Source of the DNA: a virus
Taxonomy: Duplodnaviria > Heunggongvirae > Uroviricota > Caudoviricetes
Length of the DNA: 24,993 nucleotides
Virus record (IMG/VR): IMGVR_UViG_2778261537_000018
Span: 1-24,993 of that record
Strand: one strand, 5' to 3'
Shown here piece by piece: positions 1,720 to 24,993 of this stretch. Position 1 is the stretch's first letter; the number at the start of each line of letters is the position of its first letter. A program made the position numbers and the translations under genes. The notes beneath the pieces are model-generated. The model was not told where the DNA came from. It did no database searches and was given only the letters and a program-made list of their open reading frames with translations.

Positions 1720-1720
1720 T

Positions 1721-5550: not shown

Positions 5551-5643
5551 TATACTAATGCAATAGAATATCTACCTACGATAATTTATACTGGAAGTGA
5601 TGAAAAAATAAAAAAATATCAATACTTTTCGATGTGGGGATAT

Positions 5644-7386: not shown

Positions 7387-7395
7387 GTCTGTACA

Positions 7396-8409: not shown

Positions 8410-8410
8410 A

Positions 8411-9043
8411 TCAAAGGCTCTTAATGATTTTCAATGCGCGGCCAACAACCTCGATATCATCCAGGCTGCACTCAAACGAAGAATCATCTTGATGTACAAC
8501 TAATCTGTTTCCGGGAAGGCGAGTTAGCTTAACAATGCTTTTTATCCCGTCGATATCGACCAACCACATCCCATTCACTGGTAGTGTCTGGTTACGGTCA
8601 ATTAAATATGAATCGCCATTGGTATTTACGAGAAGTAGCTCGCTTGAGTCAGGGGGAAGCAGGCTGCTATCAATGATGGCCTTCCCGGCTTCAATCAACG
8701 AACCTCCGATAAGGCTAGCCTTATCGATCTCTGGCGATACAAGCTCAGAAAGTGGTTTTACTTTGCTAGAGTTCACGAAATTGATACTTTTTCTATCATC
8801 AATTTTTGTTCCTGGTTCGCCTTGTCCTGTAGTTAGCCAGAGTAATGAAACGCCTGTTTCAAGAGCGCATTGGATCACCCATTCTGCAGGGAAGCTATCC
8901 CTTAAGTATCTGTTTGCCATAGTGCTTTTAGATGCGCCTAAGTGATCGCATAGCTGCTGTCGGGACTTGAAATCATAGGCAGCCATCAACCTATGGATAG
9001 CCTCTCTACCCCCTGTATTCTCGCCAGCCTTCACCTGTATCAT
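8411..9043 (-). CDS. CI-like phage repressor (186 cI-like, HTH N-terminal domain)
   Basis: 210 aa immediately upstream of int on the same strand; HTH-like segment QQLCDHLGASKSTMANRYLRDSFPAEWVIQCALETGVSLLWLTTGQG; position and orientation match the 186 cI-int operon. Confidence 0.7.
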   Translation of the reverse strand: MIQVKAGENTGGREAIHRLMAAYDFKSRQQLCDHLGASKSTMANRYLRDSFPAEWVIQCALETGVSLLWLTTGQGEPGTKIDDRKSINFVNSSKVKPLSELVSPEIDKASLIGGSLIEAGKAIIDSSLLPPDSSELLLVNTNGDSYLIDRNQTLPVNGMWLVDIDGIKSIVKLTRLPGNRLVVHQDDSSFECSLDDIEVVGRALKIIKSL

Positions 9044-9055
9044 TTTTTAATCCTA

Positions 9056-9107
9056 TTGACGTATCAAATATTGGATCGTAGTATCTCGATTGTTCAAATA
9101 TTGGATC
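9056..9107 (+). promoter_or_regulatory. Lytic promoter (pR-like) with flanking 14-bp direct-repeat operator candidates
   Basis: TTGACG (9056-9061), 17-nt spacer, TAGTAT (9079-9084); direct repeat tcaaatattggatc at 9064-9077 and 9094-9107. Lies in the divergent intergenic region between cI and the apl-like gene. Confidence 0.4.
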
Positions 9108-9162
9108 ACATAAAACAAGATAAAACGACATAAACCAAACCTTAACTGAGAGATACTGCACT

Positions 9163-9405
9163 ATGAGCACTGATATTTCAATTCGTGTACCAAAAGAGAT
9201 GGCTACGCCTGCAGAGTTCGCTGAATGGGAAGGTATCTCCCGTGGCTCTGTTTACCAGAAAATTCACCATGGCCAGCTCGCCAAGTACATGGTCAAGAAA
9301 GAAAAAAACAAAGGTCGCGTAAGCCTTCGTTACCTGATGTACAAAACCGACCAGGTTCGTGAATCCCTCGGTCATTCCAACTTCCGCGTCATTGTTGGTA
9401 AGTAA
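9163..9405 (+). CDS. Apl/Cox-like small excisionase/regulator
   Basis: 80-aa ORF, first gene of the rightward operon facing cI, as apl is in 186; basic, possible HTH (WEGISRGSVYQKIHHGQL). Assignment is positional plus weak motif. Confidence 0.5.
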   Translation: MSTDISIRVPKEMATPAEFAEWEGISRGSVYQKIHHGQLAKYMVKKEKNKGRVSLRYLMYKTDQVRESLGHSNFRVIVGK

Positions 9406-9437
9406 GTTCAATTATGGGAACTTTCTAAGGGGGCAGC

Positions 9438-9947
9438 ATGTTTGATTACAAGATTTCCAAACATCCGAATTTTGATGAAGCCTGTAGAGCTTTTGCACTA
9501 CGTCACAACATGACGAAGCTGGCAGAACGTGCAGGAATGAATGTTCAGACACTGCGAAACAAACTCAACCCAGATCAACCGCATCAGCTCACAGCGCCAG
9601 AAATCTGGTTGCTCACCGATCTGACTGAAGATTCAACGCTGGTAGATGGCTTTTTGGCACAGATTCACTGCCTGCCATGCGTACCAATTAATGAGGTGGC
9701 AAAAGAGAAACTGCCACATTACGTCATGAGTGCAACCGCAGAGATCGGGCGTGTTGCTGCAGGTGCGGTATCTGGTGATGTAAAAACTAGTGCCGGTCGT
9801 CGTGATGCTATCAGCAGCATTAACTCTGTAACACGACTGATGGCGCTGGCGGCTGTTTCATTGCAGGCCCGTTTACAGGCTAATCCTGCGATGGTGAGTG
9901 CAGTTGATACCGTGACTGGCCTCGGTGCTTCATTCGGTTTGCTGTGA
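9438..9947 (+). CDS. Phage CII-like regulatory protein (186 CII / CP76 family)
   Basis: 169-aa ORF after the apl-like gene; length and position match 186 cII as I recall it; N-terminal HTH-like region. No database check possible. Confidence 0.55.
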   Translation: MFDYKISKHPNFDEACRAFALRHNMTKLAERAGMNVQTLRNKLNPDQPHQLTAPEIWLLTDLTEDSTLVDGFLAQIHCLPCVPINEVAKEKLPHYVMSATAEIGRVAAGAVSGDVKTSAGRRDAISSINSVTRLMALAAVSLQARLQANPAMVSAVDTVTGLGASFGLL

Positions 9948-9954
9948 GGTGCTT

Positions 9955-10251
9955 ATGCTGACGAAAGAACCATCATTTGCATCGCTGCTGGTAAAACAAA
10001 GCCCGGCAATGCACTACGGTCACGGCTGGATCATGGGTGAGGATGGTAAACGCTGGCATCCATGTCATTCACAAGATGAATTGCTGTCTGAATTGACCAC
10101 GAGGAAACGGAGAAAGTCAAAATGTATGCAGCGGAAAGTGAAGTGGTTTATCAGTTTCGTTACAGAGGGGAGAGTTATTCAGTACCTGAAGATGATTTGC
10201 TCTGTTGTTATCCGTCGTTGTCGGGCGATGGCAGTTACTTTTTCACGCTAA
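9955..10251 (+). CDS. Fil-like small phage protein (C-terminal extent uncertain)
   Basis: ATG 9955 with GAGGTG 4 nt upstream, immediately after the cII stop; N-terminus ...HYGHGWIMGEDGKRWHPC resembles enterobacterial prophage Fil proteins as I recall them. Overlaps the next ORF by about 130 nt in another frame. Confidence 0.35.
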   Translation: MLTKEPSFASLLVKQSPAMHYGHGWIMGEDGKRWHPCHSQDELLSELTTRKRRKSKCMQRKVKWFISFVTEGRVIQYLKMICSVVIRRCRAMAVTFSR

Positions 10252-10346
10252 GGGATGGGACGTTTTTACGGGGAGAGCAGGTTAAAGAGACGATACGAAA
10301 AAATGTATCTCCTCTTGAACGTTACCGTAAGAACAAAGAACGATAG
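10122..10346 (+). CDS. Hypothetical small phage protein
   Basis: 74-aa ORF with GGAG about 10 nt upstream; overlaps the 3' part of the Fil-like ORF in a different frame, so one of the two is mis-delimited or there is a frameshift. Confidence 0.3.
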   Translation: MYAAESEVVYQFRYRGESYSVPEDDLLCCYPSLSGDGSYFFTLRDGTFLRGEQVKETIRKNVSPLERYRKNKER

Positions 10347-10368
10347 TTGCGTTTTGGGGATATGAATT

Positions 10369-10710
10369 ATGGCAATTAATGGCGCTGCGGCGACTGTTCC
10401 ATTAAGCCCCGGTGAACGCCTGAATGGACTTAATCACATTGCGGAGTTAAGGGCGAAAGTATTTGGCCTGAATATTGAGTCAGAGCTTGAGCGGTTTATT
10501 AAAGATATGCGTGATCCACGGGATATCAATAACGAACAAAATAAACGAGCACTGGCTGCCATATTCTTTATGGCAAAAATTCCAGCTGAACGTCATAGCA
10601 TCAGCATTAATGAGCTGACCACTGACGAAAAGCGGGAGTTGATTAAAGCAATGAATCATTTTCGTGCAGTGGTGAGCTTATTTCCCAGACGGCTAACCAT
10701 GCCGAATTAA
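10369..10710 (+). CDS. Hypothetical phage early-region protein
   Basis: 113-aa ORF with GGGGA SD 8 nt upstream; same strand and region as P2 orf80-83 / 186 CP genes. Confidence 0.45.
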   Translation: MAINGAAATVPLSPGERLNGLNHIAELRAKVFGLNIESELERFIKDMRDPRDINNEQNKRALAAIFFMAKIPAERHSISINELTTDEKRELIKAMNHFRAVVSLFPRRLTMPN

Positions 10711-10777
10711 GCAACTAATGAAATTAATGGCGTAAACCCGCCGGGCATCCCTTTATCTAAATTCAGGAGAATTGATT

Positions 10778-11011
10778 ATGCGTAATATTGAAACCCTCAC
10801 GACTAAAACCGGACCGGATGATGCAGGGCTTAATATTTTACTGACAGAGGCTCGTCTGGAAGAACGCCGGGCAAGGGCTGAAGCAATGGCAGCTCGCCTT
10901 GATAGCCTGGCGTGTCATATCACATCCCGCCAGCTAAACCACGTCGAAGCGGCAGAACTGCTGCGTGTGACTGCTGAAGCAATCCAGAACGAAGCGCAGG
11001 AGATCCACTAA
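10778..11011 (+). CDS. Hypothetical phage early-region protein
   Basis: ATG 10778 preceded by AGGAGA (10765-10770); 77 aa; stop overlaps the start of the TraR-like gene (TAATG). Confidence 0.45.
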   Translation: MRNIETLTTKTGPDDAGLNILLTEARLEERRARAEAMAARLDSLACHITSRQLNHVEAAELLRVTAEAIQNEAQEIH

Positions 11012-11238
11012 TGGCAGATGCAATGGATCTCGTACAGCAGCGCGTTGAAGAAGAACGCCAGCGCTATATCCGTGCTGCCCGTGCCAAAACACCGGGCGTG
11101 TCTCGTGTGCTTTGTATTGAATGTGAAGCGCCAATTCCGCCAGCACGACGCCGCGCCATTCCTGGAGTGCAGCTTTGCATTACCTGTCAGGAAATCGCAG
11201 AGCTGAAAGGCAAACATTACAACGGAGGTGTTGTATGA
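11011..11238 (+). CDS. TraR/DksA-family C4 zinc-finger protein
   Basis: 75 aa with CIECEAPIPPARRRAIPGVQLCITCQ (C-x2-C...C-x2-C), typical of phage TraR-like proteins; start overlaps the upstream stop and its own stop overlaps the dam start. Confidence 0.65.
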   Translation: MADAMDLVQQRVEEERQRYIRAARAKTPGVSRVLCIECEAPIPPARRRAIPGVQLCITCQEIAELKGKHYNGGVV

Positions 11239-12092
11239 GCACCATCCTGAAATGGGCGGGAAATAAAACCGCCATTATGTCCGAACTGAAAAAACATCTT
11301 CCTGCTGGCCCGCGACTGGTTGAACCTTTCGCGGGTTCCTGTGCTGTGATGATGGAGACGGATTACCCCAGCTATCTTGTTGCGGATATTAATCCTGATT
11401 TAATCAACCTCTATAAAAAGATTGTCGCTGATTGCGAAGCGTTTATATCTCGTGCCAGAGCTTTATTTGAGGAAGCAAACAGGGATGTGGCTTATTACAA
11501 CATAAGGCAGGAGTTTAATTACTCCACTGAAATTACTGATTTCATGAAAGCGGTATATTTCCTGTATCTCAATCGTCATGGTTACCGTGGGTTATGTCGC
11601 TATAACAAGAGCGGGCATTTCAACATTCCGTACGGTAATTATAAAAATCCGTATTTCCCTGAAAAAGAAATTCGCGCATTTGCAGAGAAAGCCCAGCGGG
11701 CAACGTTTATCTGCGCAAGCTTTGATGAAACGCTGGCGATGCTGCAGGTGGGGGATGTGGTGTATTGCGATCCGCCGTATGACGGTACGTTTTCCGGCTA
11801 TCACACTGATGGTTTCACTGAAGATGACCAGTATCACCTGGCATCCGTTCTTGAACATCGGTCATCAGAAGGACATCCGGTCATTGTTTCTAACAGTGAC
11901 ACATCCCTGATCCGTTCGCTGTATCGCAATTTTACTCACCACTACATCAAGGCAAAACGCAGCATCGGTGTGGCAGCTGGTGAGAGTAAATCTGCAACAG
12001 AAATCATCGCTGTTTCCGGGCCGCGCTGCTGGGTGGGATTTGATCCTTCGCGTGGCGTGGATAGTTCAGCCGTGTACGGAGTACGTGCATGA
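11235..12092 (+). CDS. dam: DNA adenine methyltransferase (Dam-like, orphan N6-A MTase)
   Basis: Motif I-like EPFAGSCAV and catalytic motif DPPY ([12 protein letters not shown]); N-terminus [11 protein letters not shown]. Start at ATG 11235 (ORF-track start 11175 is an upstream extension). No adjacent restriction endonuclease gene. Confidence 0.8.
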
Positions 12093-14509
12093 GTCATGCC
12101 GATATGAACAACTGCTGCGGCTTTAACGAGGCTGCCGCAGCGTTCTCATGGAACAGCCCGAAAAAGGCCATTAACCCTTATCTGGACCCGGCGGAAGTTG
12201 CGCCGGTTTCTGCGCTTTCAAACCTGATCACTCTGTACGCTGCCGATAACGAGCAGGAACAACTGCGCCGCGAGGCACTGAGTGATCAGGTCTGGGAGCG
12301 TTATTTTTTTAATGAATCACGTGATCCTGTCCAGCGCGAAATGGAGCAGGATAAGCTCATTAGCCGGGCAAAGCTGGCGCATGAGCAGCAGCGTTTTAAT
12401 CCGGATATGGTCATTCTGGCGGACGTCAACGCCCAGCCTTCCCATATCAGCAAGCCGCTGATGCAACGTATTGAATACTTTAGCAGCCTGGGCAGGCCAA
12501 AGGCTTATTCCCGCTATTTACGTGAGACGATTAAGCCATGTCTGGAACGACTGGAGCATGTACGCGACAGCCAGCTATCTGCATCTTTTCGTTTTATGGC
12601 AAGCCATGAAGGGCTGGACGGCCTGCTTATCCTGCCTGAAATGAGTCAGGATCAGGTGAAGCGCCTGTCTACCCTTGTCGCTGCGCATATGAGCATGTGC
12701 CTTGATGCCGCTTGTGGTGATTTGTATGCCACCGATGACGTTAAGCCAGAAGAAATCCGCAAAACATGGGAAAAGGTGGCAGCGGAAACCCTGCGTCTGG
12801 ATGTTATTCCGCCTGCGTTTGAGCAACTCCGTCGGAAAAGAAACCGCCGTAAACCCGTGCCCTATGAACTCATTCCGGGTTCGCTGGCGCGTATGTTGTG
12901 TGCCGACTGGTGGTATCGGAAATTATGGAAGATGCGTTGCGAATGGCGGGAAGAGCAGTTGCGTGCTGTCTGCCTGGTCAGCAAAAAAGCATCTCCCTAT
13001 GTCAGCTATGAAGCCGTGATGCATAAACGTGAGCAGCGCCGCAAGTCACTGGAGTTTTTCCGTTCTCATGAACTGGTGAACGAAGAGGGCGACACGCTGG
13101 ATATGGAAGACGTGGTAAACGCCAGCAGCAGCAACCCGGCGCACCGCCGCAATGAGATGATGGCCTGTGTTAAAGGTCTGGAGCTTATCGCGGAAATGCG
13201 TGGTGATTGCGCCGTTTTCTACACCATTACCTGTCCGTCACGTTTCCATTCCACGCTCAATAACGGCAGACCAAACCCAACCTGGACAAATGCGACGGTA
13301 AGACAAAGCAGCGATTATCTGGTCGGCATGTTTGCTGCATTTCGTAAGGCGATGCACAAAGCCGGGTTGCGCTGGTATGGCGTGCGGGTGGCTGAGCCGC
13401 ATCATGACGGTACGGTTCACTGGCACCTGTTGTGTTTCATGCGCAAAAAAGACCGCCGTGCCATTACTGCATTGTTGCGTAAGTTTGCCATCCGTGAAGA
13501 CCGCGAGGAACTGGGTAATAACACTGGTCCACGCTTTAAATCTGAGCTGATAAACCCGCGCAAAGGAACACCGACAAGCTACATCGCGAAATACATTAGT
13601 AAGAACATTGACGGGCGTGGTCTGGCTGGCGAGATCAGCAAGGAAACGGGTAAATCCCTGCGTGATAACGCTGAATACGTTAATGCCTGGGCGTCTCTGC
13701 ATCGTGTTCAGCAATTCCGCTTCTTTGGTATTCCGGGGCGTCAGGCTTACCGTGAACTGCGATTGCTGGCTGGTCAGGCGGCAAGGCAACAGGGCGACAA
13801 AAAAGCAGGTGCGCCGGTACTGGATAACCCGCGCCTTGATGCCATCCTGGCTGCTGCTGATGCTGGTTGTTTTGCCACTTACATCATGAAGCAGGGTGGC
13901 GTACTGGTTCCCCGCAAATATCACCTCATCAGAACTGCTTATGAAATTAACGAAGAGCCGACCGCCTATGGCGATCACGGCATTCGTATTTATGGCATCT
14001 GGTCACCCATTGCAGAGGGCAAGATCTGCACTCATGCAGTGAAGTGGAAAATGGTCCGTAAAGCCGTTGACGTTCAGGAGGCGGTAGCCGACCAGGGCGC
14101 TTGCGCCCCTTGGACTCGGACTCGTGGCAATAACTGTCCCCTTGCTGAAAATTTGAACCAACAAGGGAAAGACAAATCAGCTGATGGGGATACCAGAACG
14201 GATATCACCCGCATGGATGACAAGGAGTTGCACGATTACCTGCACAGTATGAGCAAAAAAGAACGCCGGGAACTGGCAGCAAGGTTACACCTGGTTAAAC
14301 CGAAACGGTGTAAAGACTACAAACAGCGAATTACAGACCATCAGCGACAGCAGCTCGTGTATGAGCTGAAGTCCAGAGGGTTTGATGGTAGCGAGAAAGA
14401 GGTCGATTTACTCCTTCGCGGCGGCAGTATTCCGTCAGGAGCAGGCCTGCGTATCTTCTATCGGAACCAGCGTTTGCAGGAAGATGATAAGTGGCGAAAC
14501 CTGTATTAA
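12089..14509 (+). CDS. Phage replication initiation endonuclease (P2 gpA / 186 RepA family, rolling-circle type)
   Basis: 806 aa; start overlaps the dam stop (ATGA); contains the conserved [11 protein letters not shown] region I associate with P2 A-type replication proteins; position matches P2/186 synteny. Confidence 0.8.
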
Positions 14510-14601
14510 TTACGATGGTTAACCATTCGTGCTCTTAATAATACCAGGCATATCAGGCTGATAAACGTAAAAAAACGTTTTACATCAGTAAGATTATTAT
14601 A

Positions 14602-14621
14602 TACTGTAAATATAAACAGTG
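14602..14621 (+). promoter_or_regulatory. LexA (SOS) box upstream of the small ORF / DinI-like operon
   Basis: TACTGTAAATATAAACAGTG fits CTGT-N8-ACAG; lies about 40 bp upstream of a strong SD (AGGAGG 14653-14658) and ATG 14663. Confidence 0.5.
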
Positions 14622-14662
14622 GTTGTACATACAGTATTGCGTGTGGTGTCATAGGAGGAAAG

Positions 14663-14851
14663 ATGCAGGACTATTTTTTGGAGTCTTTGAAGCTCCAGCG
14701 CATTGATTTTTTTCTTAAGCTTGTAGCGGCCAGTGAGTGTAGTGATGAAGAGAAGGGACTGGCTCTGCAGTGGGTTTCTGAATTGACTGATGAACTCATG
14801 GCAAAAATCAGAAGCCACGAATACAACCGCTCAATGGATGTCATCAGCTGA
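14663..14851 (+). CDS. Small SOS-controlled phage protein (possible N-terminal part of a Tum-like antirepressor)
   Basis: 62-aa ORF with strong SD AGGAGG 5 nt upstream and LexA box in its promoter region; followed 10 nt later by the DinI-like ORF in another frame. Confidence 0.45.
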   Translation: MQDYFLESLKLQRIDFFLKLVAASECSDEEKGLALQWVSELTDELMAKIRSHEYNRSMDVIS

Positions 14852-14861
14852 GGTGACTTTT

Positions 14862-15095
14862 ATGCGCATTGAAATAATGATCGATAAAGAGCAGAAGATT
14901 AGCCAGTCTACCCTGGACGCCCTTGAATCCGAGCTTTACCGTAATCTGCGCCCCCTGTATCCCAAAACGGTAATTCGTATCCGCAAAGGTAGCTCTAACG
15001 GTGTGGAACTGACCGGACTGCAACTGGACGAAGAAAGGAAGCAAGTGATGAAAATTATGCAGAAGGTGTGGGAAGACGACAGCTGGCTGCATTAA
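14862..15095 (+). CDS. DinI-family protein (phage Tum/DinI-like)
   Basis: 77 aa starting MRIEIMIDKEQKISQSTLDALESELYRNLRPLYP...KVWEDDSWL, closely resembling E. coli DinI (MRIEVTIAK...AGAIDAL...E.WE..D.W); SD GAGGTG upstream. Confidence 0.7.
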   Translation: MRIEIMIDKEQKISQSTLDALESELYRNLRPLYPKTVIRIRKGSSNGVELTGLQLDEERKQVMKIMQKVWEDDSWLH

Positions 15096-15363
15096 GAAAC
15101 GTTGCTGGCGTCTGAACTTGTTTCTGGCGTCAGCAAGGTTGAACAACGAGCCCTTGCGAGGCGTTAGCTCTGTAGTGCATGTCTATGCCGCATGAGATCG
15201 CATGATCGTTTGAGGATCGTTTTTGCTAAGGCCCGCCAGAACTGGTGGGCTTTTGCGTAGATCATGCAGGTGCATGAAAACCACTACATAAAGCGGGCAG
15301 GCGTGGCGGGGATACGAGCGCGCGCTAACTCATAAATCCTAGATTATTAGTGGATTTATCTCA

Positions 15364-17187
15364 TTGAAATGTGCACTATTCCCAGCATTGAGTTGTACCA
15401 GATGTCTTTATGGAGGGACTGTGGCTTTTGTAACTGATATTCGGCTTGAAGATAATGCTATTGCTGCACCTGCGACAGCACAGGTTATGGCTCAGAGGCT
15501 AGGATCTGTATTACGTAAGAGATATGAAGAATTCATCCATAAAAGAGAGTGTGCACCAGGCCAAGCAGACTATGATGTAAAAATGGCTAGCAGGGCTTTA
15601 GCCGCATTCACTATGTATCAGTTAGGATGTGTGGATGATAAGTATGCAGGGGAGTCTGTATGTGATAGTAGTGAAGATGGTGGTATAGATGGAATAGCAA
15701 TCAACCATAACGAAAAAATCGTTGTTGTTGTTCAATCAAAATTTCACCAATCGGGAAACGGCACTTGGACAAGAGCCGATTTTATGTGTTTTAAGGATGC
15801 TTGTGAGAAGCTACAAAGTGAAAGATACGAATTATTTGATTCCATATTGCAAAATAAAAGCGGGGAAATAAGTGCGGCTTTAAGTAGTTTTGAATACAAG
15901 TTCATCTTTGCGATGGCGCATACAGGTAAAAAAGGTGCTGCAGAGGAAATATTAAATGATATGCGGGAATGGCAATATCAATTAAACGCTGCAGCTTTTA
16001 CACCTGAGGATGAGCCTAAAGAGAACTGGGGATTTCAGGTTCATTTAATATCCTCTGAAGATATGATGCATTGGTTACAGAATGGCTCTCGAAATCAAAT
16101 TGATCTTAACAGGGTTGAAATTGAGCGTTTTGGATTTTTGAATGAACCATATCAAGCTTTTTACGGGGCTATTAGTGGTGATCAAGTTGCAGAATGGTGG
16201 GAAGAGCATGGTGCTCGATTATTTACAAAAAACATAAGGAATATGCTTGGTAAAACAGAAGTGAATGAGGAAATAAAAAAGACAGCTATAGATAATCCTG
16301 ATATGTTTTGGTTTTATAATAATGGGATTACTGTACTGGTTAAGGAAGTTGTTCCTCATAGACGAAACGCAGCTCCTAATATAGAGAGAGGGATTTTTGA
16401 TTTTCGTGATGTAAGTGTCATTAATGGTGCACAAACAGTCAGTAGTATTGGCGCATGTAAAGATGCGCTTGGTGAAAACATATATAGACTCAAAGTGCCA
16501 GCTAGATTCATTGTTATAGATGATGATACTGATAATTTAACTGCAAATGCAATTACAAAAGCTAACAATTTCCAAAATAGAGTATTGGGAAGAGATTTTG
16601 CATCGCAGCAGGCAGATCAACATAGATTGGCAAGGGAGTTAGTGCTTGAAGGATATCAATATCAGTTACTAAGAACAGATGAAGATCATTCACAGACAAA
16701 TACGAAAGTCATTGACTTGGATGAGGCGCTCAATGCACTCGCATGTTTAAGTAAAAATAATACGGTTGTATCGACACTAAAATCAAATCGCGGTAGGTTT
16801 TTTGAAAATTTTGAAGGCTCTCTATATAAAACTATTTTCAATCCAAGATTAAGTGGTTTAAAACTTATCAATACTGTTCTACATTTTAGAGTTATAGATA
16901 AGTTGATCGGTAAAACATTACTATCAGTAGATAAAACGACCCATAGTCGCAAGCATTTAATTATTACGCATGGTAATAGATACTATGCGTCTGTACTATT
17001 GAGCAACGTTTCTGGGATACATAATAGCTCAGAAATTCTTGTTCCAGATGAAAAAAATCTTTCCGAAGAATTAAGTGCATTAATTCAACGTGCTGAAGAG
17101 TACATTGAAGATAATTACCCGAATGCCTATCCGGCAAGATTTTTTGCAAATCCAACGAAAATACAAGAGTTATACGATAATGTTTAA
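15364..17187 (+). CDS. AIPR-like putative abortive-infection protein with N-terminal PD-(D/E)xK-like motif
   Basis: Long AT-rich ORF between repA and the portal gene (the P2 old/tin cargo position). N-terminal DGGIDGIAI...VVVVQSKF resembles a PD-(D/E)xK (Mrr-like) core; FWFYNNGITVLV and VINGAQT resemble AIPR-family motifs as I recall them. True start uncertain (in-frame TTG 15364, GTG 15421, ATG 15487). Confidence 0.5.
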   Translation: MKCALFPALSCTRCLYGGTVAFVTDIRLEDNAIAAPATAQVMAQRLGSVLRKRYEEFIHKRECAPGQADYDVKMASRALAAFTMYQLGCVDDKYAGESVCDSSEDGGIDGIAINHNEKIVVVVQSKFHQSGNGTWTRADFMCFKDACEKLQSERYELFDSILQNKSGEISAALSSFEYKFIFAMAHTGKKGAAEEILNDMREWQYQLNAAAFTPEDEPKENWGFQVHLISSEDMMHWLQNGSRNQIDLNRVEIERFGFLNEPYQAFYGAISGDQVAEWWEEHGARLFTKNIRNMLGKTEVNEEIKKTAIDNPDMFWFYNNGITVLVKEVVPHRRNAAPNIERGIFDFRDVSVINGAQTVSSIGACKDALGENIYRLKVPARFIVIDDDTDNLTANAITKANNFQNRVLGRDFASQQADQHRLARELVLEGYQYQLLRTDEDHSQTNTKVIDLDEALNALACLSKNNTVVSTLKSNRGRFFENFEGSLYKTIFNPRLSGLKLINTVLHFRVIDKLIGKTLLSVDKTTHSRKHLIITHGNRYYASVLLSNVSGIHNSSEILVPDEKNLSEELSALIQRAEEYIEDNYPNAYPARFFANPTKIQELYDNV

Positions 17188-17190
17188 ACT

Positions 17191-17217
17191 AAAGGGAGGT
17201 TGCCTCCCTTTTTTTTA
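17191..17217. terminator. Rho-independent terminator between the AIPR-like gene and the portal gene (bidirectional candidate)
   Basis: aaAGGGAGGttgCCTCCCTttttttttt: 7-bp GC-rich stem (17193-17199 / 17203-17209), 3-nt loop, T-run 17209-17216; lies between convergent stops at 17187 and 17219. Confidence 0.6.
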
Positions 17218-17218
17218 A

Positions 17219-18244
17219 TTAGAAATGGTATTCTTGGAATTCAATAACACCTTCTTTTATGAAATTGTTTATTTCTTGTAATCTTTTTTGCAATGGCAAT
17301 AATTCATTACGTACAAATACTTTACTCGCCTTCTCTACATCTCCAAAGCCCCCGACATTATTAGGCATTATCCCCATCATTTGTGGCGGCACACGATGCG
17401 CCGCCATCATGTCGTCCCGGCTCACGTTCTTGATATTCAGGAACTCATCCTTCGCCGCCACTTCTGACAACGGGATAATCTGAAGCCCGTCCTTTTTACC
17501 GTTAGGCGAGTACATAAACAGGTTACGGAAGTTACCAGGACCTTTGGCGCTTTTCATCGCATTGCGGAGGTTGTTCACATCCTCCTGGTTCTGCGCTGCA
17601 TCGGTCATGTACATGATGAAGCCTGCATGACTGCCGTTAATGTAATACTTGCGGCGGAACAGCGTGGCGGACTCGTTGAGCAAAGCGGATGGGATGGCAG
17701 AAAGATAGCCGGGCAGGCCGTAGATCTCCTGATTAATATCCGGTTCCATCAGATGAAAAATGCTGCCTTTCGTGAACTGATACGGCTGGGTTGTCATACC
17801 GTATTGCACAAACCAGTAGGTATCCAGGTCTAACCCGCGTCGGGTGTATTTTGCCAGAGCAGGCTCAAGGGCGATAACTTCACCGAAGCGGTTCGTGCGT
17901 TTCTCCAGGTAGGCGTTACCAAATACCAGATAGTCCTGCACAAAACGTGAAAAATCCTGCTGGCTGAGCAGCGGGTGAGGGATGTAGGTACTGGTCAGAA
18001 TGTTGCATTTCACTGCAATCGGTGAACTGTGATGCACGGCGGCGCGGAAGGTGCGCGCCAGCCCGTCAAAGCTTACTGGCGGCTCATACCAGCGATCTGT
18101 CTGTACGCATTCCACATAGTCCAGCAGTTCGCGGCGGTCCAGAACAGGAACGGGATCACCGAAGCTGAATGCTTCGGCTGAAGTCTGGCTTTTATGCTGG
18201 ATCTGGTTCGTCGACGCAGCGCGGTTCTTCTTACTCTTTCCCAT
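17219..18244 (-). CDS. Phage portal protein (P2 gpQ family)
   Basis: About 341 aa, same size as P2 Q; directly downstream of and overlapping the terminase large subunit gene by 1 nt on the same strand; position matches the P2 Q-P arrangement. Confidence 0.8.
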   Translation of the reverse strand: MGKSKKNRAASTNQIQHKSQTSAEAFSFGDPVPVLDRRELLDYVECVQTDRWYEPPVSFDGLARTFRAAVHHSSPIAVKCNILTSTYIPHPLLSQQDFSRFVQDYLVFGNAYLEKRTNRFGEVIALEPALAKYTRRGLDLDTYWFVQYGMTTQPYQFTKGSIFHLMEPDINQEIYGLPGYLSAIPSALLNESATLFRRKYYINGSHAGFIMYMTDAAQNQEDVNNLRNAMKSAKGPGNFRNLFMYSPNGKKDGLQIIPLSEVAAKDEFLNIKNVSRDDMMAAHRVPPQMMGIMPNNVGGFGDVEKASKVFVRNELLPLQKRLQEINNFIKEGVIEFQEYHF

Positions 18245-20010
18245 CAAAAAATCTCCACAATATTGCTGGTATTGGCGGACTCGCCCTGCAGCGGTTCGTT
18301 AAACAGTGCGTGCATTGTTGCCCAGGCCAGATCCGCATGGCTGGCTTCTTCGCTGCGGCTGGCTTCATAGGTCGGGCGGTTGCCGCTGGCGGTGGTGGCG
18401 CGACGGATTGCCATAAATGACTGCGCTATGTCGGTGTGTCCGGCGTCAAACTCCAGACGGCGGTGACTGATAATGTCGTAGGCCTTGAGTACCAGGGCGT
18501 TTTTAACATTGGGGTTGTAGACAAACTCCCGGACGGCAGGAAAAAACGCTTTCACGTTCTCGTAAACCCCGTGACCGACGCCGGTTGAGTCGATACCGAT
18601 ATATGTCACGTTGTACTGTTCAGTCAGTTTTTTGATGGCGTCAGCCTGGGCGCGGAAGTCCATCCCGCGCCACTGGTGACGCTCAAGAATGCGGAACTTA
18701 CCACCCGGCACGGCTGGCGGAGCCACTACCACGCATCCGGCACTGTCGCCGTTCTGCGTACCTTTTGCCGGGTCATAACCGATCCACACTTCGCGCCAGC
18801 CAAACGGGCGCAGGGCCAGTGCATGAAAGTCGGTCCAGACTTCCCAGCTGTCCACCATGCACGCCTGCAGTTCGCTGAGCGGGAACACGGACGCGAGATC
18901 GTCCACGAACTCGCACATCAGCAGGTTCTGGTATTCGTCCGGGCTGTACTCCATGCGCAGCTGGTCGAGGTCGAACAGGTTACAGCCGCCGCGCACCGCA
19001 TCTTCCACGGTGACTATCTGGCGGTATTGCCCGTCTGCGCACAGCAGGCCGGGGGCCAGATTGCTGTGGGACAGGTCGATGTCCACCTTGTCAGCTTTGT
19101 TGCGTCCACGGTTGAACAGCGCACCGGACCAGAACGGATAAGCACTGTGGGTCAGGCTGGATGGCGTGGAAAAATAGGTTTGTCGCCATTTCTTGTGAAT
19201 AGCCATCCCGGAAGCCACTTTGCGCAGCTCCTGGAATTTCGGTATCCAGAAATATTCATCCAGATACAGGTTGCCGTGATAACTCTGGGCCGTGCGGGCA
19301 TTGGTGCCGAGGAAGTAAAGCGTGGCTCCGTTAGGAAGCACCATCGGATCGCCTTTTAGCTCCACCTCGACTTCTTTGGCGAAGTCGATGATGTATTGTT
19401 TAAAGACGTGGGCCTGAGCCTTACTGGCAGAAAGGAAAATCTGGTTACGTCCGGTAAGCAGGGCGTCAATCAGGGCTTCACGGGCAAAATAGAAGGTCGC
19501 GCCGATCTGGCGAGACTTCAGCAGGTTGCGGATACGGTTGGTTTTTCCGGCTTCCCACCAGTGGCGCTGGTAGTTGAACATGGAGGAATGGAAGATTTCT
19601 TCCAGCTTCTCAATCTGCTCATCGGTGAAAACATTCTTTTCCGGCTGACGGCGTGGGCCTTTATTGCGGTTGGCGACGTTAGGGTTTAAGTCGGCTTCGT
19701 TGCCGCCATTGTTAAACTTGCCGATCCGCGCGTGGCGCTCAGACTGGCGCGCCAGCAGGTCAATCTCTTTGAAATCTTTCCCTTCTTTGTGCTCCTTCAT
19801 GATGAGCTGGCAGTAGCGTGCGGCGGTGGTGAGCTGCATCTGATCCAGCGGCCCATAGTCACCCCACTTGTCGCGTTTTTTCCAGCTGTGAACGGTTGCA
19901 ACTTTCTCGCCCAGCATTTCAGCAATGCGGGCTACGCGGTATCCCTGAAAGTACAGCAGCATGGCCTGCCGACGGGGATCGAGATCTGCGGGTGTCAGTG
20001 TGGTGTTCAT
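18244..20010 (-). CDS. Terminase large (ATPase) subunit (P2 gpP family)
   Basis: 588 aa, the size of P2 P; divergent from the scaffold gene as in P2 (Q-P leftward, O-N-M-L rightward). Confidence 0.8.
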   Translation of the reverse strand: MNTTLTPADLDPRRQAMLLYFQGYRVARIAEMLGEKVATVHSWKKRDKWGDYGPLDQMQLTTAARYCQLIMKEHKEGKDFKEIDLLARQSERHARIGKFNNGGNEADLNPNVANRNKGPRRQPEKNVFTDEQIEKLEEIFHSSMFNYQRHWWEAGKTNRIRNLLKSRQIGATFYFAREALIDALLTGRNQIFLSASKAQAHVFKQYIIDFAKEVEVELKGDPMVLPNGATLYFLGTNARTAQSYHGNLYLDEYFWIPKFQELRKVASGMAIHKKWRQTYFSTPSSLTHSAYPFWSGALFNRGRNKADKVDIDLSHSNLAPGLLCADGQYRQIVTVEDAVRGGCNLFDLDQLRMEYSPDEYQNLLMCEFVDDLASVFPLSELQACMVDSWEVWTDFHALALRPFGWREVWIGYDPAKGTQNGDSAGCVVVAPPAVPGGKFRILERHQWRGMDFRAQADAIKKLTEQYNVTYIGIDSTGVGHGVYENVKAFFPAVREFVYNPNVKNALVLKAYDIISHRRLEFDAGHTDIAQSFMAIRRATTASGNRPTYEASRSEEASHADLAWATMHALFNEPLQGESANTSNIVEIF

Positions 20011-20152
20011 GGCACAAACCTACAGCCTTGAATGAAGGCTTTCCCCGCCTGCGGTTTGTGTGGTTGTCGGTACAAATACCGCGCATTGTTTCACTGCCCC
20101 CATCACCGCAACCATAAGGCTCCAGTAAGTTTTTTCTAACGGAGCACGGCTC

Positions 20153-20986
20153 ATGACAGTGAAAGCAAAGCGTTTTCGCATCGGGGTGGAAGGTGCCACC
20201 ACCGACGGACGCGAAATCCAGCGTGAATGGCTGGAACAGATGGCAGCCAGCTACAACCCGGCGGTGTATACCGCGCTGATTAACCTTGAGCACATCAAGT
20301 CTTATCTGCCGGACAGCACCTTTAACCGCTACGGCAAGGTGACGGCGCTGTTTGCTGAAGAAATCACGGAAGGTCCGCTGGCAGGCAAGATGGCGCTGTA
20401 TGCCGACGTTGAGCCAACGGAGTCCCTGGTGGAGCTGGTGAAAAAAGGCCAGAAATTATTCACCTCTATGGAAGTCAGCCCGAAGTTTGCTGATACGGGC
20501 AAAGCCTACCTGGTCGGCCTGGCTGCCACTGATGATCCAGCCAGTCTGGGTACGGAAATGCTGACATTCAGCGCCAGTGCAGCCCATAACCCGCTGGCAA
20601 GCCGCAAGCAGAATCCTGCCAATCTCTTTACCGCTGCAGAGGAAACGGTGATCGAACTGGAAGAAATCCAGGATGACAAACCGTCCCTGTTTGCCCGTGT
20701 CACGGCGCTGTTCACCAAAAAAGAGCAGTCCGATGATGCCCGGTTCTCTGATGTGCATAAGGCCGTGGAGCTGGTCGCCACTGAGCAGCAGAACCTGAGC
20801 GCACGCACCGAAAAATCCCTGTCTGAGCAGGAAGAACGCCTGTCTGAACTGGAGACTGCTCTGCAGGAGCAGCAAACCGCTTTTAACGAACTGGTGAATA
20901 AGCTGAGTCATGAAGACAGCCGCCAGGACTACCGCCAGCGTGCAACAGGCGGTAACGCCCCCGCTGACACTCTGACCAATTGCTGA
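20153..20986 (+). CDS. Capsid scaffolding protein (P2 gpO family)
   Basis: 277 aa; N-terminus ...RFRIGVEGATTDGREIQREWLEQMAASYNP...INLEH resembles P2 gpO (FRIGVEG.T.DGR...INLEH); GGAG 8 nt upstream of ATG. Confidence 0.8.
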   Translation: MTVKAKRFRIGVEGATTDGREIQREWLEQMAASYNPAVYTALINLEHIKSYLPDSTFNRYGKVTALFAEEITEGPLAGKMALYADVEPTESLVELVKKGQKLFTSMEVSPKFADTGKAYLVGLAATDDPASLGTEMLTFSASAAHNPLASRKQNPANLFTAAEETVIELEEIQDDKPSLFARVTALFTKKEQSDDARFSDVHKAVELVATEQQNLSARTEKSLSEQEERLSELETALQEQQTAFNELVNKLSHEDSRQDYRQRATGGNAPADTLTNC

Positions 20987-21002
20987 TGGAGCACAAAACC
21001 TG

Positions 21003-22061
21003 ATGAAGAAGAATACCCGCTTTGCTTTTAACGCTTACCTGCAGCAGCTGGCGCGTCTGAACGGTGTGGCAGTTGAAGAACTGTCCAGCAAGTTCACCGT
21101 GGAGCCGTCTGTACAGCAGACGCTGGAAGACCAGATCCAGCAGTCCGCCGCTTTCCTGACGCTGATTAACGTCACGCCAGTGACTGAGCAGTCCGGTCAG
21201 CTGCTGGGGTTGGGTGTTGGCAGCACCATTGCCGGAACCACTGATACCACCGCGAAAGAGCGTGAACCTGTCGATCCGACGCTGATGGTCGATGTGGAAT
21301 ACAAATGCGAGCAGACCAACTTTGACACGGTGCTGACCTACGCGAAGCTGGACCTGTGGGCGAAATTTCAGGATTTCCAGGTGCGTATCCGTGACGCCAT
21401 CGTGAAACGTCAGGCACTGGACCGCATCATGATCGGCTTTAACGGCGTGAAGCGTGCGAAAACCTCCAACCGTAGTGAAAACCCGCTGCTACAGGATGTG
21501 AACAAAGGCTGGCTGCAGAAAATCCGTGAGGATGCACCGGATCACGTCATGGGCAGCACCACCACGGGCGGCGAAACCACACCGGGTGCGGTGAAAGTCG
21601 GGAAAGGTGGCGAATATGCCAACCTGGACGCTGTGGTGATGGATGCGGTCAATGAGCTTATCGACGTGGTCTACCAGGACGATGACGATATGGTGGTGAT
21701 TTGCGGTCGTGAACTGCTGTCTGACAAGTATTTCCCGCTGGTCAACAAAGAGCAGGAAAACAGTGAAAAACTGGCAGCCGATATGATTATCAGTCAGAAA
21801 CGCATGGGCGGTCTGCAGGCCGTGCGTGCGCCGTTCTTCCCGCCGAATGCGCTGCTGATCACCCGTCTGGATAACTTGTCCATCTACTGGCAGGAAGACA
21901 CCCGCCGCCGTTCAGTTATCGACAACCCGAAACGTGACCGGATTGAAAACTTTGAATCCGTTAATGAAGCCTATGTGGTTGAGGACTACCGCTGCGCCGC
22001 ACTGGTGGAAAACATCCAGATTGGTGATTTCAGCACCGCCGCAGCCGAAACCGGAGCGTAA
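21003..22061 (+). CDS. Major capsid protein (P2 gpN family)
   Basis: 352 aa; ...TRFAFNAYLQQLARLNGV...KFTVEPSVQQTL...GFNGVKRA...VGKGGEYANLDA...IISQKR...IGDFS closely matches P2 gpN as I recall it. Confidence 0.85.
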   Translation: MKKNTRFAFNAYLQQLARLNGVAVEELSSKFTVEPSVQQTLEDQIQQSAAFLTLINVTPVTEQSGQLLGLGVGSTIAGTTDTTAKEREPVDPTLMVDVEYKCEQTNFDTVLTYAKLDLWAKFQDFQVRIRDAIVKRQALDRIMIGFNGVKRAKTSNRSENPLLQDVNKGWLQKIREDAPDHVMGSTTTGGETTPGAVKVGKGGEYANLDAVVMDAVNELIDVVYQDDDDMVVICGRELLSDKYFPLVNKEQENSEKLAADMIISQKRMGGLQAVRAPFFPPNALLITRLDNLSIYWQEDTRRRSVIDNPKRDRIENFESVNEAYVVEDYRCAALVENIQIGDFSTAAAETGA

Positions 22062-22064
22062 TCC

Positions 22065-22715
22065 ATGAGCCTGAGTCCCGCACGGCAGCATCGCCTGCGC
22101 GTTCAGGCTGAACAGGCCGCCCGCGAGGGCGGCAGTGTTCGCCACGCATCGGGCTATGACCTGATGCTGCTGCAACTGGCGGAAGACCGCCGCCGTCTCA
22201 AGGGCGTTCAGTCCACGGTCAAAAAAGCGGAAATCAAGGTGGAGCTGCTGCCGAAGTACGCCGCCTGGGCAGAGGGGGTCCTGGCTGCCGGAGGCGCTCA
22301 ACAGGATGACGTGCTGATGTACGTGATGCTGTGGCGCATTGATGCCGGAGATTATGCCGGGGCGCTGGAGATCGGGCGTCATGCCCTGCGTCATGGCTGG
22401 GTGATGCCGCTGGGTAACCGCAACGTGCAGACCGTGCTGGCAGAGGAAATGGCAGACGCCGCGCAGAGCGCAATGCTTGCCGCCACCGGCTTTGATGCCG
22501 ATCTGTTGTTGCAGACGCTGGAGCTGACAGACGGTCTGGATATGCCGGACCAGTCACGGGCGCGTCTGCATAAAGCGATTGGCGCTGTCCTGAGTGAAAG
22601 CAATCCGGCTTCCGCCCTTAATCATCTCAACCATGCGTTACAGCTCGATCCCCGCTGTGGCGTGAAAAAAGACAAACAGCAGCTGGAGCGCAGACTGCGC
22701 AATGACAGCCGCTGA
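22065..22715 (+). CDS. Terminase small/endonuclease subunit (P2 gpM family)
   Basis: 216-aa ORF immediately after the capsid gene; assignment by synteny (O-N-M-L) and size, with weak sequence recollection. Confidence 0.65.
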   Translation: MSLSPARQHRLRVQAEQAAREGGSVRHASGYDLMLLQLAEDRRRLKGVQSTVKKAEIKVELLPKYAAWAEGVLAAGGAQQDDVLMYVMLWRIDAGDYAGALEIGRHALRHGWVMPLGNRNVQTVLAEEMADAAQSAMLAATGFDADLLLQTLELTDGLDMPDQSRARLHKAIGAVLSESNPASALNHLNHALQLDPRCGVKKDKQQLERRLRNDSR

Positions 22716-22810
22716 CAGAACGTGCCCCCGCGCACGGGCGGCACGGGGTGGCGAAAGGCACTGCCACATCAAAACCCCGTCCACCGCCCTCTATTTCAGG
22801 AGAAAGCAGC

Positions 22811-23014
22811 ATGAAGTTTGTTGCGCCAGAACAGGCACCGGAACAGGCGGAAATCATCAGAAATACGCCGTTCTGGCCTGATGTGGACCTGTCGGAGTTT
22901 CGCAGTGTCATGCGCACTGACGGCACGGTGACGCAGCCGCGTTTAAAGCAGGTTGACGGTTTTACAACCAGTATTGAACTCGAAGTGAAGATTGATGATC
23001 TTGAAATGGAGTAA
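22811..23014 (+). pseudogene. Truncated head completion/stabilisation gene (P2 gpL N-terminal fragment)
   Basis: ATG 22811 with AGGAGA SD; MKFVAPEQ...FWPDVDLSEFRSVMRTDGTVTQPRL matches the gpL N-terminus; ORF ends after 67 aa whereas gpL is about 169 aa; the next gene is ogr, so the intervening morphogenetic genes are deleted. Confidence 0.5.
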
Positions 23015-23082
23015 AGTGTTCTCAATATTGATATTTTGTGTATCATTACAATGATTCTGATAGCAAAGGTAGGGATCTGGAT

Positions 23083-23301
23083 ATGATGAATTGTCCAAAG
23101 TGTGGTCATGCGGCACACACAAGGAGCAGTTTTCAAGTAACTGAAAGCACCAAAGAGCGTTACTGCCAGTGCCAAAATATTAACTGCGGGAGTACTTTTG
23201 TTACCCATGAAACAGTGGTCCGGTTTATTGTGACACCCGCACTGATTGCTACTGCTCCTCCACATCCATTGCCAGGTGGTCAGGGGCATATGAATTTTTG
23301 A
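23083..23301 (+). CDS. Ogr/Delta/B-family zinc-finger late-gene transcriptional activator
   Basis: 72 aa from ATG 23083: MMNCPKCGHAAHTRSS...TKERYCQCQNINCGSTFVTHETVVRFIV...PHPLPGGQ, near-colinear with P2 Ogr (CPLCQHAAHARTS...KERYHQCQNVNCSATF...PHPLPSGQ). Confidence 0.8.
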   Translation: MMNCPKCGHAAHTRSSFQVTESTKERYCQCQNINCGSTFVTHETVVRFIVTPALIATAPPHPLPGGQGHMNF

Positions 23302-23327
23302 GAAAGAGAACCTGCTACGGCAGGTTT

Positions 23328-23810
23328 TTATTCATCTGGGATCTCACCCGTTTCAAGAAAATGTATAAAGCCAGGCTCATCTATGATGATTGTGCCTTTC
23401 ATCCTGGCTGCCGATACTTTTGATGGGCCTGCATTGTAACCGCAACAGAGCATCTGAAGGCTTTGGGTTACAGAGGTTCTTACCGTTAATCCTTGTTCAT
23501 TCGCCTTATCAACCAATCTTTCTTTATCTGCTTTCTTAAATCCGGTGAAACACACATCGAATGTATTTTTTTTCGGACCAGACTGCTTGGTGAGATGTGA
23601 GTAGTTTTCGGGGAGGAATGACGCGCACTCCTGAATGGCTTGTTCTGGTGAATCGTACTGTTTAAGAATGCGGTCTTTTCGGAAGGTTTTTATTCGATCG
23701 GTGTTCTTACAAATGCCCTGTATATGATTTTCGCTATAACTGATGCTCTGTATAGAGTGAACACCGATACGACCATTTGCATTGATGTAAACAAAGTGAA
23801 GTTCTTCCAT
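23328..23810 (-). CDS. Small WYL-like / BRCT-domain protein, function unknown
   Basis: 160-aa AT-rich ORF between ogr and ssrA. C-terminal 75 aa fit a BRCT fold pattern (CFTGF...RLV...GLTVRTSVTQSLQMLCCGYNAGPSKVSAARMKGTIIIDEPGF, compare LigA BRCT VLTGSL...[41 protein letters not shown]). N-terminal part has an R-x-F-R-x-D-R-I-like motif (KTFRKDRI) reminiscent of WYL domains. Confidence 0.4.
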   Translation of the reverse strand: MEELHFVYINANGRIGVHSIQSISYSENHIQGICKNTDRIKTFRKDRILKQYDSPEQAIQECASFLPENYSHLTKQSGPKKNTFDVCFTGFKKADKERLVDKANEQGLTVRTSVTQSLQMLCCGYNAGPSKVSAARMKGTIIIDEPGFIHFLETGEIPDE

Positions 23811-23864
23811 GTGAAACCTCTTTGCATGATTTCAAGATGGCGACAGGCAAGATAGACGCAAAAG

Positions 23865-23887
23865 TCTGTCGCCATTTTGCCGCCACT
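23865..23887. repeat. 23-bp direct repeat, right copy, forming the 3' arm of a 10-bp inverted repeat
   Basis: tctgtcgccattttgccgccact identical to 5528-5550; atggcgacag (23837-23846) is the exact reverse complement of ctgtcgccat (23866-23875), giving a hairpin with a 19-nt loop. Confidence 0.8.
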
Positions 23888-23933
23888 ACTAAAGAAAAAG
23901 GGGCTACGCTTTCACGTAACCCCTTGATTTATT

Positions 23934-24296
23934 TGGTGGAGCTGGCGGGAGTTGAACCCGCGTCCGAAATTCCTACATCCTCGGTACTACATGCTTAGTC
24001 AGTCTTTACATTCGCTTGCCAGCTGCGGACGGACACGCCACTAACAAACTAGCCTGATTAAGTTTTAACGCTTCAACCCCAGGCAGGGCTTCCACGCGAT
24101 CTCTTTTGGGTTTGACCTCTCTTGATCCCCGTCCTAAGAGCGGAGGCTAGGGAGAGAGGGCTCTAAGCAGGTTATTAAGCTGCTAAAGCGTAGTTTTCGT
24201 CGTTTGCGACTATTTTTTGCGGCTTTTTACGAGGCCAACCGCCCCTCGGCATGCACCTTGGGTTTCGCAAATCCCGTCGAATCCAGAATCAGCCCC
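23934..24296 (-). ncRNA. ssrA: tmRNA (SsrA), intact 363-nt gene
   Basis: Reverse complement reads GGGGCTGATTCTGGATTCGACGGGATTTGCG...TAAAAACTTAATCAGGCTAGTTTGTTAGTGG...GGGTTCAACTCCCGCCAGCTCCACCA, matching E. coli tmRNA as I recall it; lies immediately downstream of smpB on the same strand. Confidence 0.95.
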
Positions 24297-24510: not shown

Positions 24511-24993
24511 TTAACGGTGGGCGTTTTTCATGATACGTGCTTTATCCACCTGCCATTCGCGTTCTTTGATATCTGAACGTTTATCGTGCTGTTTTTTACC
24601 TTTGGCGACGCCGATTTTCACTTTGCACCAGGCATTTTTCCAGTACAGGGAGAGCGCCACTACGGTATAGCCTTCTCGATTGACGCGACCGTACAATGAG
24701 TCCAGTTCGCGCTGGTTGAGAAGTAACTTGCGGGTACGGGTAGGATCGCACACCACATGCGTGGAGGCCACGGCCATTGGCGTGATGTTAGCGCCAAACA
24801 GAAATGCCTCTCCGTCACGCAGAAGGACGTAGCTGTCGCTGATATTGGCTTTTCCTGCGCGCAGGGATTTAACCTCCCAGCCTTGCAGGGCAAGTCCCGC
24901 TTCGAACTCTTCTTCGATAAAGTATTCGTGACGGGCGCGCTTGTTAAGCGCGATGGTCGCTGAACCAGGTTTATGTGCTTTTTTCTTCGTCAT
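24511..24993 (-). CDS. smpB: SsrA-binding protein SmpB
   Basis: 160-aa [58 protein letters not shown]...NAHR, essentially the E. coli SmpB sequence; start codon is the last three bases of the window. Confidence 0.95.

Follow-up and report, generated by a model that had tools for sequence, protein, structure and literature searches.

The window, by which we mean the whole stretch of DNA analysed here (24,993 nucleotides), has an E. coli chromosomal setting, with smpB (24511–24993) and the tmRNA gene ssrA (23934–24296) at its right end, both on the minus strand. Two copies of a 45-bp sequence from the 3′ end of ssrA, in direct orientation and identical at 45 of 45 positions, bound an 18,543-bp element and represent the att cores of a P2/186-type prophage. 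The right core (23934–23978) is the 3′ end of the functional ssrA gene, as recognized by ARAGORN and Rfam (tmRNA, 295.8 bits), and homology to phage Cartapus (NC_070909) stops at 23978; the left, int-proximal core (5391–5435) starts at the very position, 5391, where homology to the E. coli prophage LF4-1 begins. To the left of the prophage, positions 1–5390 belong to another island associated with ssrA, which encodes an integrase of its own (3996–5267, minus strand). That island adjoins ssrA directly in many E. coli genomes, which indicates that the prophage was inserted between the island and ssrA in a tandem integration. The island also carries a gene pair encoding a histidine-kinase-like ATPase (HATPase_c/HEF_HK, 1–1719) and a Response_reg_2 protein (1703–3469), a pairing presumably of the sort assigned to predicted conflict systems; the PADLOC search returned no match for this pair.

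Core genes of the prophage

The integrase gene (7396–8409, minus strand) encodes an intact protein of 337 aa with the Pfam domains Phage_integrase and Int_N that matches the LF4-1 integrase from end to end with 100% identity. It is followed by the 186-type immunity and early region (8411–15095), which comprises CI on the minus strand and Apl, CII, Fil, DUF5347, DUF2732, TraR, Dam, A (the replication endonuclease), a 62-aa ORF and a DinI-like gene on the plus strand, all aligned with LF4-1 at 98–100%. The cos region (15268–15326) has been kept, with 58 of its 59 bases identical to the annotated ‘putative cos site’ of Cartapus (positions 1–59). The head and packaging genes (17219–22715), assigned from Pfam matches and comparison with LF4-1, are Q (portal) and P (large terminase) on the minus strand and O (scaffold), N (capsid) and M (small terminase) on the plus strand. 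Pfam matches in this region include Phage_cap_P2 (E = 1.5e-151) and Phage_term_smal (E = 2e-40), and Phage_portal, the terminase domains, Phage_GPO_N and Phage_GPA were found on the precomputed gene calls. The P, O, N and M products align with those of LF4-1 over their full length without gaps; the 342-aa portal Q (341–348 aa in the relatives) is 92.5% identical and has a variable C-terminus that is unlike that of LF4-1. At the right end, ogr (23083–23301, plus strand) encodes an intact 72-aa late-gene activator of the 186 B type (Pfam Ogr_Delta, E = 9e-21) that is 100% identical to the Ogr of the defective E. coli prophage E1433.

When compared with the annotated genes of intact or sister prophages (LF4-1 and E1433), the dCTP deaminase gene (see below), int, every gene from CI to the DinI-like gene in the order given above, P, O, N, M, ogr and the BRCT-domain gene (see below) align over their full length at 98–100% and contain no stops. 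Gene A differs from its relatives in length by two residues; a 6-bp in-frame indel at 14112–14117 is polymorphic both among the carriers of the deletion described below and between the relatives (806 vs 804 aa). The claim of an earlier note on this DNA that int, the immunity region, replication, the head module and three cargo genes had all been kept is thus confirmed by full-length alignments to relatives, complemented for the AIPR cargo gene by its match to phrog_1841.

A TGT-N12-ACA element, which we take to be the form of the Ogr site in P2 late promoters, is found at 20057–20074 in the P–O intergenic region, ∼ 79 bp ahead of the gpO start; it is at such a position that a late promoter dependent on Ogr would presumably be expected. 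A second copy (19999–20016) overlaps the gpP start codon. A motif scan showed that the number of such elements in the window is not above chance, and their presence serves as a weak consistency check only.

The gene order Q, P on one strand and O, N, M, L on the other, an Ogr/Delta zinc finger encoded next to att, a gpA replication endonuclease, a tyrosine integrase and flanking att repeats are all features of the P2 family, with L represented by codons 1–48 only. The contractile-tail, baseplate, tail-fibre and lysis modules, which make up the block at Cartapus 6615–22440, are absent, so the element is a defective derivative rather than a functional member of the Peduoviridae. With all three references, the picture is that expected of a defective prophage, in which collinearity with intact phages is interrupted at one breakpoint and the essential genes that belong there are missing.

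Cargo genes

All three cargo genes are intact and two of them match recognized defence families. The first (5644–7386, plus strand), located between att and int, encodes an anti-phage dCTP deaminase (PADLOC dCTPase, E = 6e-140; Pfam dCMP_cyt_deam_1) that is 99.8% identical over 580 aa to the product of an LF4-1 gene named ‘anti-phage dCTP deaminase’ by RefSeq. The second (15421–17187, plus strand) occupies the cos-proximal gpA–gpQ hotspot and encodes an AIPR/AbiU-like abortive-infection protein (Pfam AIPR, E = 7e-35; PADLOC AbiU, E = 6e-25); this 588-aa ORF covers nearly the entire phrog_1841 ‘Abi alpha-like’ profile (E = 7e-173) and has no counterpart in LF4-1 or E1433, the two relatives compared. 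The gpA–gpQ locus is a known defence hotspot of P2 (PMC9122126), and the int–att position has been described as a minor one (PMC13586616).

The third gene (23328–23810, minus strand), between ogr and att, encodes a 160-aa BRCT-domain protein. It matches phrog_2561 (‘DNA ligase’ family, E = 2e-77) and, more weakly, two PHROGs of NAD-dependent ligases, in the C-terminal part of those profiles; the Pfam BRCT match is sub-threshold (E = 1e-3), and the E1433 gene is named ‘BRCT domain-containing protein’ in RefSeq. There is also a weak PADLOC match to PDC-S48, and the gene is labelled ‘putative exonuclease’ in Cartapus. A gene in the same position is found in Cartapus and, with ∼ 70–73% identity, in 5 of the 18 ogr loci from other species. 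The BRCT-domain gene may be an accessory gene that is conserved and not variable cargo.

Anatomy of the L–D junction

The earlier note had described a 67-aa gpL-like ORF followed after 68 bp by ogr, and the sequence bears this out. Read directly from the window, the ORF with its stop codon occupies positions 22811–23014 and encodes MKFVAPEQ...LKQVDGFTTSIELEVKIDDLEME; ogr begins with an ATG at 23083, 68 bp downstream of the stop; and the two products match the Pfam profiles Phage_GPL (profile positions 1–32 of 139 aligned with residues 16–47, E = 5e-9) and Ogr_Delta, respectively. The note took this ORF for a truncated gpL with a deletion junction at its end. The C-terminal two thirds of gpL are indeed lost and a deletion junction does lie here, but the break falls inside the ORF (22955/22956), 59 nt ahead of its stop, and the product, rather than being simply truncated, is an in-frame chimera of gpL residues 1–48 and the C-terminal 18 aa of gpD.

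This breakpoint comes from the alignment to intact relatives that the note had proposed. Cartapus 6261–6614 corresponds to window positions 22602–22955 (99.7% identity), covering the end of gpM and gpL codons 1–48, and Cartapus 22441–23463 corresponds to 22956–23978 (96.9%), covering the last codons of D, the 68-bp D–ogr spacer, ogr and the BRCT-domain gene. Because the Cartapus flanks are collinear on both sides, the 15,826 bp between them (Cartapus 6615–22440) are absent from the window element. This segment amounts to 47% of the 33,368-bp Cartapus genome.

On the Cartapus map, the sequence breaks off on the left one base into L codon 49 and resumes on the right at the second base of D codon 348. 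Given these phases, the fusion is in frame and consists of L codons 1–48, a hybrid Asp codon, D codons 349–366 and the stop of D itself (the frame being computed from the Cartapus coordinates). The gpL part (head completion protein or head–tail adaptor; codons 1–48 and the first base of codon 49, 22811–22955, plus strand) is 100% identical to residues 1–48 of the 154-aa gpL of LF4-1. The 3′ end of D (two bases of codon 348, codons 349–366 and the native stop, 22956–23014, plus strand) begins exactly where homology to Cartapus (22441 onward) and to D of E1433 begins. It is followed by the native 68-bp D–ogr spacer (23015–23082, plus strand), equal in length to and collinear with Cartapus 22500–22567. 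Accordingly, the last 19 residues of the ORF, its stop codon and the spacer are all native gpD and D–ogr sequence. A scan of PHROG profiles independently matched aa 1–47 to a head–tail adaptor family and aa 48–67 to the C-terminus of a tail protein family. The position of the breakpoint also agrees with LF4-1 on the L side and with E1433 on the D side, and a megablast search of phage records showed the matches to P2-like phages (42 of Klebsiella and several of Escherichia and Salmonella) ending at 22955.

According to the Cartapus gene list, the deletion removed the last 106 codons of gpL, 22 complete genes and the first 347 codons of D. The complete genes are X, holin, endolysin, spanin, R, S, a hypothetical gene, V, W, J, I, the tail fibre and assembly genes, the invertase, FI, FII, E, E′, T and U. 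Of these, X encodes a tail protein, R and S tail completion proteins, V, W, J and I baseplate proteins, FI the sheath, FII the tube and T the tape measure. The 67-aa ORF is best annotated as an L′-′D fusion pseudogene and the whole element as a defective prophage.

Two further observations concern this region. The 46-position profile phrog_36898 (function unknown) matches gpL residues 1–46 (window 22811–22948, E = 6e-38), which suggests that N-terminal ORFs of a truncated gpL have also been annotated in phage or prophage sequences deposited elsewhere. Around the D–ogr spacer, at 23001–23055, a scan for consensus sequences alone gave three sigma-70-like matches, that is, promoter-like hexamers. 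No non-coding RNA was found at the joint, as the only Rfam matches were to tmRNA.

The possibility that L naturally adjoins ogr in this lineage was considered and rejected. In both Cartapus and LF4-1, ∼ 15.8 kb separate the gene for a 154-aa gpL from ogr, and this interval holds the genes for lysis, tail completion, baseplate, fibre, sheath and tube, tape measure, U and D. In 16 of the 18 loci from other species, ogr is directly preceded by a D that is complete or nearly so (the weakest alignment covering residues 24–359 of 366).

Distribution of the junction

The exact 67-aa fusion protein is recorded on 13–14 contigs. We read five of these carrier contigs, from five separately assembled samples, and all five have the identical junction (41 nt). 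One carrier contig is identical to the window, and the four Logan contigs differ from it by 1–5 SNPs per ∼ 10 kb, or by 2 SNPs in the case of a single 1.4-kb contig; some SNPs are common to several samples (23011 G>A in four, 22502 T>A in two). Over 12.2 kb, contig NMHQ01000048.1 of the NCBI assembly GCA_002511735.1 matches the window at 100% identity, and the other carriers come from Logan assemblies of several sequencing runs; SRR9002320, SRR32927086 and SRR23061417 derive from carrier isolates. The carrier contigs are continuous from gpA across the junction into the host smpB gene and past it. Since the five carriers differ by only 0–5 SNPs, the junction is genuine and has been passed on by descent in a small clone; the deletion is older than the slight diversification of these contigs and confined to that one clone.

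Of the 5,426 complete E. coli genomes, 1,012 contain related L or D–ogr sequence but none spans the junction, and the 34-nt junction had no exact match in the GTDB set of one genome per species or in the JGI metagenomes. Many E. coli prophages seemed at first sight to span it within ∼ 17 kb, but these cases resulted from the att-core repeat being joined in place, and LF4-1 is intact.

Origin of the deletion

Microhomology and an IS scar at the joint, both suggested by the earlier note as things to look for, were sought and neither was found. There is no microhomology (0 nt) in comparison with Cartapus on both sides, with LF4-1 on the L side or with E1433 on the D side; this zero count and the 15.8-kb size rest on close relatives of the true parent phage, all three of which agree at the joint. 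At 22955/22956 we found no IS, inverted repeat, foreign sequence or target-site duplication, each base being either L or D sequence. A deletion mediated by an IS or transposon, or by repeats, was rejected for lack of any IS, terminal inverted repeats, target-site duplication or repeats at the joint, and a microhomology-mediated (slippage-type) deletion for lack of bases shared at the joint with the three references. The simplest reading of the sequence would be a single homology-independent (illegitimate) deletion; a history of several steps, such as an IS insertion, an adjacent deletion and loss of the IS, or two successive deletions, is possible.

Intact and deleted relatives

Cartapus (Peduoviridae, Elveevirus) and LF4-1 are intact ssrA-integrated elements of the P2/186 type that are collinear with the window element and 96–99.7% identical to it on both sides of the junction. 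They share with it the order cos, cargo, Q, P | O, N, M, L ... D, ogr, BRCT gene, att, cargo, int, CI. The D–ogr spacer is the same 68-bp one in Cartapus, and LF4-1 has the same dCTP deaminase gene beside int. The window element differs from Cartapus in being devoid of 22 whole genes and of parts of L and D. The cargo of the gpA–gpQ hotspot also differs: it encodes AIPR in the window element, a DUF4145 protein in Cartapus and two small proteins in LF4-1.

The defective P2-like prophage of E. coli strains E1433 and E1620 is located at the same site as the window element, between the integrase of the ssrA island and ssrA, and carries the same dCTP deaminase and BRCT cargo. It, too, has a large internal deletion in the late region that left ogr, int and the immunity and replication genes, but this deletion is a separate one, in which ∼ 13.2 kb were lost between gpO nt 219 and the 3′ end of FII, the joint showing a 3-nt overlap (in E1433, NZ_CM180511.1, at 18485–18487 of the extracted locus). 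This prophage keeps E, T, U and D but is without N, M and L. In E1433, the cos-proximal hotspot is occupied by IS100 (11503–13304 of the extracted locus). In the metagenome-assembled genome UBA5654 (DIJC01000021.1), gpL nt 429 is joined to E′/T with ∼ 10.9 kb lost and a 2-nt overlap (joint at 1134–1135 of the extracted locus). Enterobacter nematophilus has a cos–cargo–Q′-′D–ogr remnant (4381–6243 of the extracted locus), in which a 184-bp segment inside D is inverted. The breakpoints in E1433, UBA5654 and E. nematophilus are unrelated, which indicates that large internal deletions in the late region recur in this phage family. The 18 loci from other species were chosen through ogr, so that the retention of ogr among them is biased by ascertainment.

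Nature and persistence of the remnant

Taken together, these data make it very probable that an Elveevirus-like prophage of the P2/186 type in ssrA lost ∼ 15.8 kb of lysis and tail genes in one homology-independent deletion and that the defective remnant keeps the cargo. The deletion itself and its exact layout are shown by the alignments, and no observation speaks against them. An intact 186-type prophage of the P2 family would first have integrated at the 3′ end of ssrA, and one internal deletion of ∼ 15.8 kb would then have joined the first base of gpL codon 49 to the second base of gpD codon 348. That the joint was in frame would have been a matter of chance, yielding the 67-aa L′-′D chimera that ends at the stop of D and is followed by the untouched D–ogr spacer and ogr. 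The resulting 18.5-kb remnant, unable to build tails or complete heads or to lyse the cell, would be inherited vertically as a defective prophage.

The head completion, tail and lysis genes are essential in P2. As the holin, endolysin and spanin, all tail genes and most of gpL have been lost, gene content and established P2 genetics lead us to infer that the remnant cannot make infectious particles or lyse its host. It retains both att cores, int, Apl, CI, A, cos, both terminase subunits, portal, scaffold, capsid and ogr, and with this gene set it may still be able to excise, to replicate and to express its head genes upon induction. The three cargo genes, judging by their sequences, presumably still act for the host.

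The earlier note suggested that the element persists as a carrier of defence genes, which is plausible as a reasonable inference and consistent with published work (PMC13586616). One could go on to regard the remnant as a domesticated defence island under selection, in which the loss of the lysis and tail genes cut the cost of induction while the protective cargo was kept; we consider this possible but rather doubtful. All three cargo genes are intact, two of them in recognized defence families, but so are the head, terminase, replication and int genes, and because genes without a role in defence are equally well preserved, intactness shows that the deletion is young and not that the cargo was selectively preserved. 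The junction is common to samples that have since diverged by a few SNPs, sister elements with other deletions in the late region likewise keep the dCTP deaminase and BRCT genes, and defective P2 elements with near-identical defence genes are on record (PMC13586616). Nevertheless, the carriers of this particular junction are few and closely related, being limited to the 13–14 contigs, with none among the complete E. coli genomes or in the JGI metagenomes, and their divergence is too small for any dN/dS test. With all genes equally intact and the carriers forming one small clone, these data do not separate selection from a recent neutral deletion.

Alternatively, the remnant might be a helper-dependent satellite that encodes its own capsid, by a logic like that of capsid-forming PICIs, using its own cos and terminase and obtaining gpL, tails and lysis functions from a co-resident or superinfecting P2-like helper. 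This we regard as very unlikely. In such a scheme, SOS induction or a superinfecting P2-like phage would trigger excision, replication and packaging into capsids made by the element itself, with the helper supplying gpL, tails and lysis; these steps are just as improbable. The retained cos, terminase, portal, scaffold, capsid, ogr, replication, int, Apl and att functions are what such a satellite would need, and a TGT-N12-ACA element is in place between P and O, although its frequency in the window is not above chance. However, gpL has been destroyed, no size-redirecting or helper-sensing genes were seen in the element, and its nearest relatives (96–99.5%) are full-length phages. Moreover, an 18.5-kb monomer would come to ∼ 55% of the size of a P2 genome and a dimer to ∼ 110%; judging from known P2 and P4 packaging, neither would obviously suit a T=7 head as substrate. 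The reduced architecture is found in one small clone (13–14 carrier contigs, the five that were read being near-identical) and not across a diversified lineage, and the breakpoints of the independent remnants are different and unrelated, which fits random decay better than a selected architecture. If true, this scheme would mean a newborn capsid-encoding satellite that spreads three defence-type genes, a satellite born from a phage by a single deletion.

Finally, an assembly artefact, in which a draft assembly had collapsed sequences or joined them wrongly, is practically excluded: the best-matching public record, NMHQ01000048.1, is a draft contig and the other carriers are automated Logan assemblies, but the same 41-nt junction was assembled separately five times in contigs that differ elsewhere by SNPs and run unbroken from gpA into smpB and beyond, and the joint contains no repeat that might mislead an assembler.

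The loss of the late region by deletion from an ssrA prophage is ordinary prophage decay of a known kind, and defective P2 prophages that keep defence genes have already been described. Together with the three other independently deleted relatives, the element shows that P2-type elements can lose the late region yet keep their hotspot cargo, in agreement with recent reports that defective P2 elements stabilize defence genes in chromosomes. Because its remaining genes are intact, the carrier strain offers a handy natural system for studying excision and replication, or mobilization by a helper, of a tail-less P2 derivative.

Comparison with known systems

Capsid-forming PICIs and P4-type satellites have integration, replication, packaging and capsid genes and are devoid of tail or lysis genes. 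The gene set of the window element is superficially like theirs. Unlike these satellites, it shows no sign of an evolved lineage, helper sensing or capsid-size control, its gpL is broken and its nearest relatives are complete phages.

There is also a precedent among the P2 elements themselves. Defective P2 elements with conserved, near-identical defence genes have been described and the question of their domestication has been raised (PMC13586616, NAR 2026). The cargo of the window element is located in the two hotspots named in these studies, gpA–gpQ and int–att (PMC13586616; PMC9122126). The defective elements described there are recognized mainly by pseudogenized core genes in uncharacterized regions, whereas the window element has undergone one clean deletion and its remaining genes are intact.
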